Virus record (IMG/VR): IMGVR_UViG_3300011115_000874
Coordinates: 64,001-128,000 of that record
Length of the DNA stretch: 64,000 nucleotides
DNA from: a virus
Strand: one strand, 5' to 3'
The translations under genes and the position numbers were made by a program. The notes beneath the pieces were generated by a model, which did no database searches, was not told the origin of the DNA, and saw nothing but the letters and a program-made list of their open reading frames with translations. Shown here piece after piece: positions 508-917 of the stretch (within the stretch, counting starts at the first letter, position 1; each line of letters opens with the position of its first letter).

Positions 508-861
508 CTAAATCTTCTCACACATAGTCTCATCTGCCAAAAACTCTATAAATAAACTCTCACCTTCAAAATAACTACTAATACTTTTTCTAATACTAAC
601 ATTATACCAAATATCCTTCCCCCAAATATCACTTAACTCTTTATCTTCTAAACAAACACCTTCACCTACAAACTCTTTAATTTCATTAATACTACAATCA
701 TCATTATAATCTTCAAAATCATCATCCAACCAAAACTCATAACTCACTCTATCACCAATTTTATACTCATTATAATCACTCTCCATATTACCTAAAATCA
801 ACCCATTAATAACATTTCCAATTCCAACATTTACATCAACCACATTTTTAAACTTTTCCAT
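508..861 (-). CDS. 117-aa acidic protein encoded by an essentially cytosine-free mRNA; candidate anti-defence/DNA-mimic protein
   Basis: Start moved to MEKFKNV (861) because the promoter at 886-917 lies inside the longer ORF; only 2 C in 354 nt; 28 D/E vs 10 K/R. Confidence 0.85.
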   Translation of the reverse strand: MEKFKNVVDVNVGIGNVINGLILGNMESDYNEYKIGDRVSYEFWLDDDFEDYNDDCSINEIKEFVGEGVCLEDKELSDIWGKDIWYNVSIRKSISSYFEGESLFIEFLADETMCEKI

Positions 862-885
862 ATTTTTATATTTTTTAATTATACC

Positions 886-917
886 TAAATATAATAAAAA
901 TGGTACACAAAGCCAAA
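886..917 (-). promoter_or_regulatory. Early promoter TTTG-N20-TATATTTA
   Basis: Motif match. Confidence 0.8.

Follow-up and report, generated by a model that had tools for sequence, protein, structure and literature searches.

Templates that lack one base have been built for in vitro work: synthetic C-less and G-less cassettes, which are engineered and non-coding, can be transcribed without one of the NTPs. In the single-protein-production system, engineered ACA-less mRNAs resist MazF through codon choice. A Rho-avoiding purine bias, which is genome-wide, graded and purine-favouring, has been described by Dierksheide et al. 2026 (PMC13323073). In the nearest cultured relative of the phage analysed here, Flavobacterium phage immuto (immuto_2-6A), dG is completely replaced by fdPreQ1 (PMC10516641). 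Our full-text literature search found no description of natural C-free phage genes. The locus that we compare with these systems lies in a stretch of viral DNA of 64,000 nucleotides (the window), bases 64001-128000 of a virus record of 160,798 bp with a 127-bp terminal overlap.

The + strand of the window has no G over the 365 nt from 537 to 901, which leaves the coding strand of the gene P0001 without C there. A scan of the genome for runs without one base had been proposed as a check in an earlier sequence-only reading of this DNA. Among G-free runs this one came first; the second-longest had 98 nt within the window, and 191 nt when the 160.8-kb genome was scanned in full. At a G frequency of 0.140, chance would give 2.3e-20 G-free runs of 365 nt in the whole genome. 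Within the span of the coding sequence the + strand has G at positions 527 and 536 only, and the coding strand of the gene consists of 0.6% C, 28% G and 37.9% T (T is approximately 31% genome-wide). Serine is encoded by AGT in nine of nine cases, leucine by TTA or TTG (7) and arginine by AGA (2); the protein contains a single Ala and a single Thr and lacks Pro, Gln and His, and 28 D/E residues stand against 10 K/R. Our recount agreed with the sequence-only reading on the run, the two-C coding sequence and all of these residue and codon counts. The promoter and the downstream hairpin that it had assigned to the gene were also found, as a promoter-like site and a hairpin (Table 1). The predicted message of 399 nt contains neither ACA nor TAC, a trivial consequence of its near-zero C content.

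Table 1. Features of the C-free unit and of related loci; positions are those of the window unless marked as genome positions
Feature	Position	Strand	Remarks
P0001 coding sequence, 117 aa, ORF intact	508..861	-	2 C in 354 nt: Ala109 GCA, Thr112 ACT
Predicted C-free 5' leader ATAATTAAAAAATATAAAAAT	862..882	-	transcription start inferred at ~882
Promoter-like element TTGGCT-17 nt-TATATT	888..916	-	read as Bacteroidota-type -33 TTTG / -7 TAnnTTT
Hairpin GAGGGGTTTAACCCCCCTTC, a few bases past the stop codon	484..503	-	first C cluster of the transcript
Terminator-like hairpin and T-run of the upstream gene	1047..1068	-	insulates the C-free unit on its 5' side
Second C-free gene, 76 aa, unrelated to P0001	genome 59639..59869		~4.1 kb before window start, 4.6 kb from P0001; 2 C in 231 nt (GGC-CAT)
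7-deazaguanine gene set	43153-48666		MazG-like, FolE, PRTase, QueE, QueD, QueC (Pfam matches) and DpdA3 homologue

The genome (GC 31.6%) has 222 ORFs, 216 of them on the minus strand. When coding-strand C was determined for each ORF, two outliers were detected, P0001 at 0.6% and the 76-aa gene at 0.9%, while all other ORFs had at least 6.4% (median 13.6%). The 76-aa gene has the same promoter subtype as P0001, its stop codon is overlapped by a GGGGTTTAACCCC hairpin, and no other member of the C-free class is as widely conserved. An early gene at genome 62924..63268, with a 122-nt C-free stretch in its 3' part and 6.7% C overall, may be an intermediate or partial case of the C-free state.

Homologues of P0001 in IMG/VR and metagenome contigs had 2-5 C where the proteins were 72-95% identical, and those that had diverged to 40% and 33% had 0 and 1 C. 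The homologues thus do not have normal C content. A profile search of 1.8 billion representatives returned 18 relatives only, in which A/P/T/Q/H residues made up 0-5%. Versions of the gene with 0-5 C came from IMG/VR and from JGI/NCBI contigs of many separate samples, and C-free homologues span more than 12 independent assemblies; the C-free feature is neither an assembly artefact, the alternative considered in the sequence-only reading, nor a one-off. Neither the region nor P0001 nor the 76-aa protein matched anything in DNA and protein searches of a phage collection. Two of the P0001 homologues had unusual architectures. P0025, on an NCBI contig, is 182 aa long and is interrupted by a T5orf172/MUG113 (GIY-YIG-like) domain, which suggests insertion of a homing endonuclease into a C-free gene. 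P0158, a distant homologue on a short contig, carries an N-terminal KRLQQLAGI leader and has an ordinary A/P/T/Q/H content (12%); if it is packaged and injected, the P0001 family may be needed at the instant of infection.

Homologues of the 76-aa protein led to more distant syntenic phages with 40-60% protein identity. On the contigs of these relatives the C-free genes formed one block per contig, of 1665+293 nt (six genes), 1475 nt (five genes) and 696+228 nt, and the blocks took in spacers and internal promoters; the longest C-free run elsewhere on the same contigs was about 75 nt. The 1665+293-nt block, the sole one read base by base, is flanked by hairpins on both sides, and every gene in it has a promoter of its own, in a C-free version. 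Genes of this C-free kind encode at least 11 unrelated protein families, including a hydrophobic membrane peptide of 63 aa. A cultured representative was found in immuto_2-6A, where gp143, an acidic protein of 118 aa from the early region, is encoded with 5 C in 357 nt behind a C-free leader, the next lowest ORF of that phage having 5.5% C. C-free genes were absent from Mel-JY01, a related phage, and from CP220 and phiST, which have modified G, so the feature is not general. We read the C-free units as members of one discrete class, made up of small and probably early transcription units, in the immuto-like phages of Flavobacteriia.

We then compared the limits of the C-free zone with the predicted signals of transcription. 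The Bacteroidota promoter consensus is -33 TTTG / -7 TAnnTTTG. About 20 early promoters in the focal genome share the pattern TTTGGC-N-TATATTnAnnnATAATTAAAAA; judged by their sequence they fit the Bacteroidota pattern and look host-type. The P0001 promoter belongs to a subtype in which TTTAT replaces GATGT ahead of the TATATT box, and this subtype is common to C-free genes in the relatives. Among 16 promoters of C-free genes, C was common in the 5 nt before a conserved ATAATT (TAACC, TAGCC or TAGTC), and downstream of ATAATT a single C was present in two of the 16 leaders and none in the others. Because relatives tolerate C in the 5 nt just upstream and hardly downstream, we placed the start of the P0001 message at approximately 882, so that the C-free zone would begin at the predicted transcription start; that start and the early timing of the unit are both deduced from sequence. 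Of the other leaders in the focal genome, 13 of 16 contain C. The P0001 message first shows a C in codon 109 of 117, and there is none between the predicted start (882) and the end of codon 108. At the far end, a hairpin after the stop is conserved downstream of both the P0001 and the 76-aa family. In the families checked, the first C cluster is the GGGGTTTAACCCC hairpin 0-24 nt past the stop; it starts directly after TAA in the 76-aa family, and in the 1665+293-nt block the first C cluster lies 12 nt past the last stop. An Rfam scan of window 1-3000 gave no match.

C was also missing at synonymous positions. None of the 86 two-fold NNY codons of the two focal genes ends in C; of such codons, 31.4% do so in 26 neighbouring early genes that use this promoter family, and 22.1% in the remaining genes (P=9e-15). 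In codon alignments, the variable third positions that are ever C numbered 1 of 43 and 1 of 41 in the two C-free families, and 340 of 753 in nine neighbouring families (P=1.2e-17). The residual C was almost confined to second codon positions of Ala and Thr or to a conserved Gly-His (GGC-CAT). Since synonymous C is absent, the zone starts at the predicted start and C resumes near or after the stop, what is constrained is the transcript, or the way its template is read, and not the encoded protein. The sequence-only reading had proposed that the gene barely needs tRNAs for the missing amino acids; the sparing of tRNAs fails as a reason, since C is also lacking from untranslated leaders and intergenic spacers, and the other half of that proposal, escape from RNase sites that contain C, may apply and is taken up below. 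Since G is not avoided (28%), a motif in double-stranded DNA is not the target either. Weak mRNA structure was considered as a cause and rejected: the folding of both messages is weak (-11.4 and -12.3 kcal/mol per 100 nt), and that of two ordinary neighbours is weak as well.

A pattern that is confined to one base, C, on the sense strand of a transcription unit, with T raised by 7.5 points, might also be left by transcription-associated deamination of C on the exposed non-template strand of strongly transcribed units, possibly with runaway R-loop feedback. Such mutational decay appears very improbable to us. Neighbours with near-identical promoters show normal or higher NNC use, and G, too, is raised, by 10 points. 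Over the 1,435 residues of the C-free proteins A/P/T/Q/H fall by 19 points, and this is offset mainly by D (+4.2), E (+4.1), G, C, F, N and W; in one pair of C-free and C-containing homologues Pro is replaced by Gly, Asp or Asn, and Ser by Asp, Glu or Lys. Substitutes such as D, E, G and N are not products of C-to-T change, which would have given V/I/F/L/Y. Moreover, the ORFs are intact, with 39 invariant residues over 21 sequences, and the C-free state persists through turnover to 33% identity. In our reading, purifying selection maintains the C-free state across the whole class. The earlier proposal that the base composition of this gene is itself an adaptation was borne out in so far as the C-free composition is conserved and selected; its companion claim, a likeness to T7 Ocr, found no support.

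Like T7 Ocr and ArdA, P0001 is a small, very acidic and presumably early phage protein. Its AlphaFold model, of a single chain (pLDDT 78), shows a compact alpha/beta fold instead of an elongated helical dimer, and no sequence or fold match to them was found. The best hits in the fold searches were a Foldseek PDB match at E 0.17 and a VIA match at Z 4.2, neither convincing. Pfam and PHROG gave no match for P0001 at E<=0.1 and nothing informative for ten other C-free proteins; there was no named homologue among 25+18 database matches, and an ESM Atlas features search returned unnamed viral clusters only, below 0.9. For the 76-aa protein, the model (pLDDT 82) shows a ferredoxin-like arrangement, which is a common one (best Z 6.4). 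Unrelated C-free proteins are acidic too, and with the loss of A/P/T/Q/H the acidity of P0001 is largely a by-product of its 15-amino-acid alphabet. From its position and size we infer a role in early take-over or counter-defence.

The gene content of the phage includes PolB, GroEL, RNR, DnaB and many glycosyltransferases. The nearest cultured phage by major capsid protein is immuto (54% identical), followed by Microcystis phage Mel-JY01 (47%), and with the closest cultured phage infecting Flavobacterium, the host is presumably a freshwater member of the Flavobacteriia. Synechococcus was considered as host, since one homologue is labelled S. lacustris, and was rejected: that homologue lies on a 3.4-kb binned contig, no psbA was found, and the capsid protein leads to Flavobacterium phages. 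A related phage fragment with the same label (NCBI JBEIMU010000199.1) carries a PhdYeFM antitoxin and a PIN-domain gene, a VapBC-like pair, beside its early genes. The early region of the focal genome encodes tRNA-Met(CAT) and tRNA-Leu(TAA) (genome 60495..60658), the latter decoding both C-free Leu codons. Seven of the eight copies of GTAGGGG in the window lie at 1611-2060 on the minus strand, in an apparently non-coding stretch of 47% GC upstream of a 153-aa gene, and none of 100 shuffles gave eight copies; the array looks like iterons and may serve as an origin or bind a regulator. A similar GGTAGG-rich stretch was seen at approximately 11520-11700 of the segment L001, in which position 9639 is genome 59639.

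The phage encodes a set of 7-deazaguanine genes (Table 1), among them a DpdA3 homologue (window 47860-48666) that is 36% identical to the DpdA of immuto and 34% to that of CP220. QueF, which immuto has, was not found in the complete focal genome, and from this gene content a preQ0-level derivative would be expected in the focal phage, not the fdPreQ1 of its cultured relative. QueC was not seen on the contigs of the relatives, whose completeness is 15-50% and which end short of the syntenic region. The modification of the cultured relative resists restriction enzymes with G-containing sites (PMC10516641). The sequence-only reading had pointed out that a strand without G cannot contain restriction sites with C or G. 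This is logically true and an unlikely driver: an island of 0.4 kb cannot protect a genome of 160 kb, and avoidance of sites would be redundant where the full 7-deazaguanine/DpdA3 pathway is encoded.

The same genes bear on its further proposal, that with 7-deazaguanine at every G a G-free template lets the unmodified host polymerase read these genes first. The genes for such a modification are indeed present, dG is fully replaced in the cultured relative, and the promoter subtype of the C-free genes is without the GATGT motif. Templates with vinyl- or ethynyl-7-deazaG almost abolish transcription in vitro, although no short transcripts were formed, which places the block at initiation and not at elongation (PMC4838386). 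The -33 box of the C-free promoters retains G on both strands, and approximately 20 other early genes with G-containing templates use the same promoter family. CP220 (100% dADG) and phiST (100% dDG, with a Flavobacteriaceae host) are without C-free genes, and the focal phage and immuto share the C-free feature in spite of the different G derivatives predicted from the absence and presence of QueF. We regard the modified-guanine template as an improbable cause.

Two further explanations concern the fate of the transcript. A C-less message could not be bound by Rho and would escape premature termination in a Bacteroidota host, which lacks Shine-Dalgarno-driven ribosome loading. Rho is C-specific and acts on the sense transcript, loading where naked RNA is rich in C and poor in G; its RNA-binding domain was present in Bacteroides and not in Synechococcus in our control set, and the related Microcystis phage Mel-JY01 is without a C-free gene. 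CP220 and phiST have no C-free genes either, though their hosts have Rho. Rho avoidance is known to shape coding-strand composition (PMC13323073), but it predicts pyrimidine-poor messages, whereas T here reaches 38% against approximately 31% genome-wide. NNC use is higher (31%) in neighbouring early genes that have these promoters, some of which contain 20-22% C, and the near-absolute absence of C over 1.6 kb exceeds what a rut-free RNA needs. Evasion of Rho is an unlikely explanation in our assessment, though less so than the modified template.

The second of these is escape from endoribonucleases that require C, such as MazF/Kid-type toxins (ACA, UAC), some Csx1/Cas13 collateral specificities or a phage-borne shut-off RNase. 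The P0001 transcript contains neither ACA nor UAC, and the C residues past the stop sit in a stem. A metallophosphoesterase gene and an RNA ligase gene (PHA02142 OB fold plus RNA_ligase) adjoin on the minus strand at window 3016-4843, beside the early region; they are possibly an RNA-repair pair like T4 Pnkp/Rnl1, and their presence suggests that the phage meets RNA-cutting defences. Motif-specific enzymes, however, would spare many synonymous C's, of which none were seen, and many toxins cut A/U motifs, which are abundant in the C-free messages. No RNase was identified in the phage. The candidate for a head cargo, a 280-aa protein encoded between the prohead protease and the scaffold (genome 155607..156449), had no Pfam match and no PDB sequence match. 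We consider RNase escape somewhat less probable than evasion of Rho and slightly more so than the modified template.

The explanation that we prefer is that the P0001 unit is a natural, selected 'three-letter' transcription unit, with a message of A, G and U only from approximately 882 to codon 108 of 117. Each C would be costly while the message is made or before it is translated, and first-wave messages would avoid it. As the whole explanation, we give this reading about an even chance. The single most likely agent would act on elongation just as infection begins, when the host RNA polymerase would be limited by CTP or poisoned by a C analogue; a nucleotide-level cost, from scarce CTP or a C analogue, is favoured because it best fits the per-C, context-free pattern, and we name it as the agent only tentatively. 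C-dependent attack on the nascent RNA, by Rho loading or by a C-requiring endoribonuclease, ranks close behind. Overall, we place a per-C cost of synthesis before escape from Rho and RNases, these before the modified template, and mutational decay last. It had been proposed that a C-less transcript could be made despite ddhCTP terminators or CTP depletion, and this may be so and fits a per-C cost, though the promoters are host-type. Viperin products are thought to act chiefly on viral polymerases, which counts against ddhCTP at promoters that look host-type. Our literature search found no CTP-depleting phage defence. A complete block at the first C would also seem disfavoured: as C lies within 0-24 nt of the stop, the polymerase would stall too close for the ribosome to finish.

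It is conceivable, though doubtful, that C-free early cassettes are a general phage device for making first-wave proteins while an undescribed host activity penalises every C in a transcript; withdrawal of CTP, a C analogue, or a C-directed nuclease or terminator would be candidates for this activity. If so, the cassettes would mark a C-directed immune or physiological barrier in aquatic Bacteroidota, together with at least 11 uncharacterised counter-measure proteins. The C-free genes point to a C-specific hazard at the start of infection and indicate that selection at the level of the message can by itself override the amino-acid alphabet of a protein. The small C-free proteins are candidates for new functions in host take-over or anti-defence, and natural proteins of 15 letters that are predicted to fold (pLDDT 78 and 82) are of interest for the design of reduced-alphabet proteins. 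A cultured test system exists in Flavobacterium sp. LMO8 and gp143 of phage immuto_2-6A.

Compared with the systems described at the outset, the focal phage stands closest to immuto_2-6A, with the same size and gene order, a capsid protein that is 54% identical and a low-C gene, gp143. It differs in that immuto makes fdPreQ1 and the focal phage has no QueF; tblastn with P0001 (E<=1) gave no match in a phage collection that contains immuto, and gp143 is a hypothetical protein in its record. In gene content (FolE, QueD, QueE, QueC and the DpdA3 homologue) the focal phage resembles the DpdA3-type full-replacement phages. To these earlier descriptions our analysis adds a reference gene in a cultured phage, a boundary that coincides with the predicted start of transcription, a promoter subtype, an account of which amino acids make up for the lost ones, and three genomes as negative controls. 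As in the Rho-avoiding bias, coding-strand C lies below G (0.6% versus 28% in the P0001 gene), but the pattern here is all-or-none, or bimodal, is limited to a few T-rich units and leaves the neighbours undepleted. As in the ACA-less mRNAs, the recognition site of an RNase is absent from the message; there one trinucleotide was removed, whereas here it is a whole base, at the cost of five amino acids. With the synthetic C-less and G-less cassettes the unit shares a template without one base from the start site to a set end, having no C from its predicted start to codon 108, and relatives have no C over 1665 nt. In contrast to those cassettes, the focal unit is natural, protein-coding and conserved by selection, and it belongs to a class of genes in a phage lineage.
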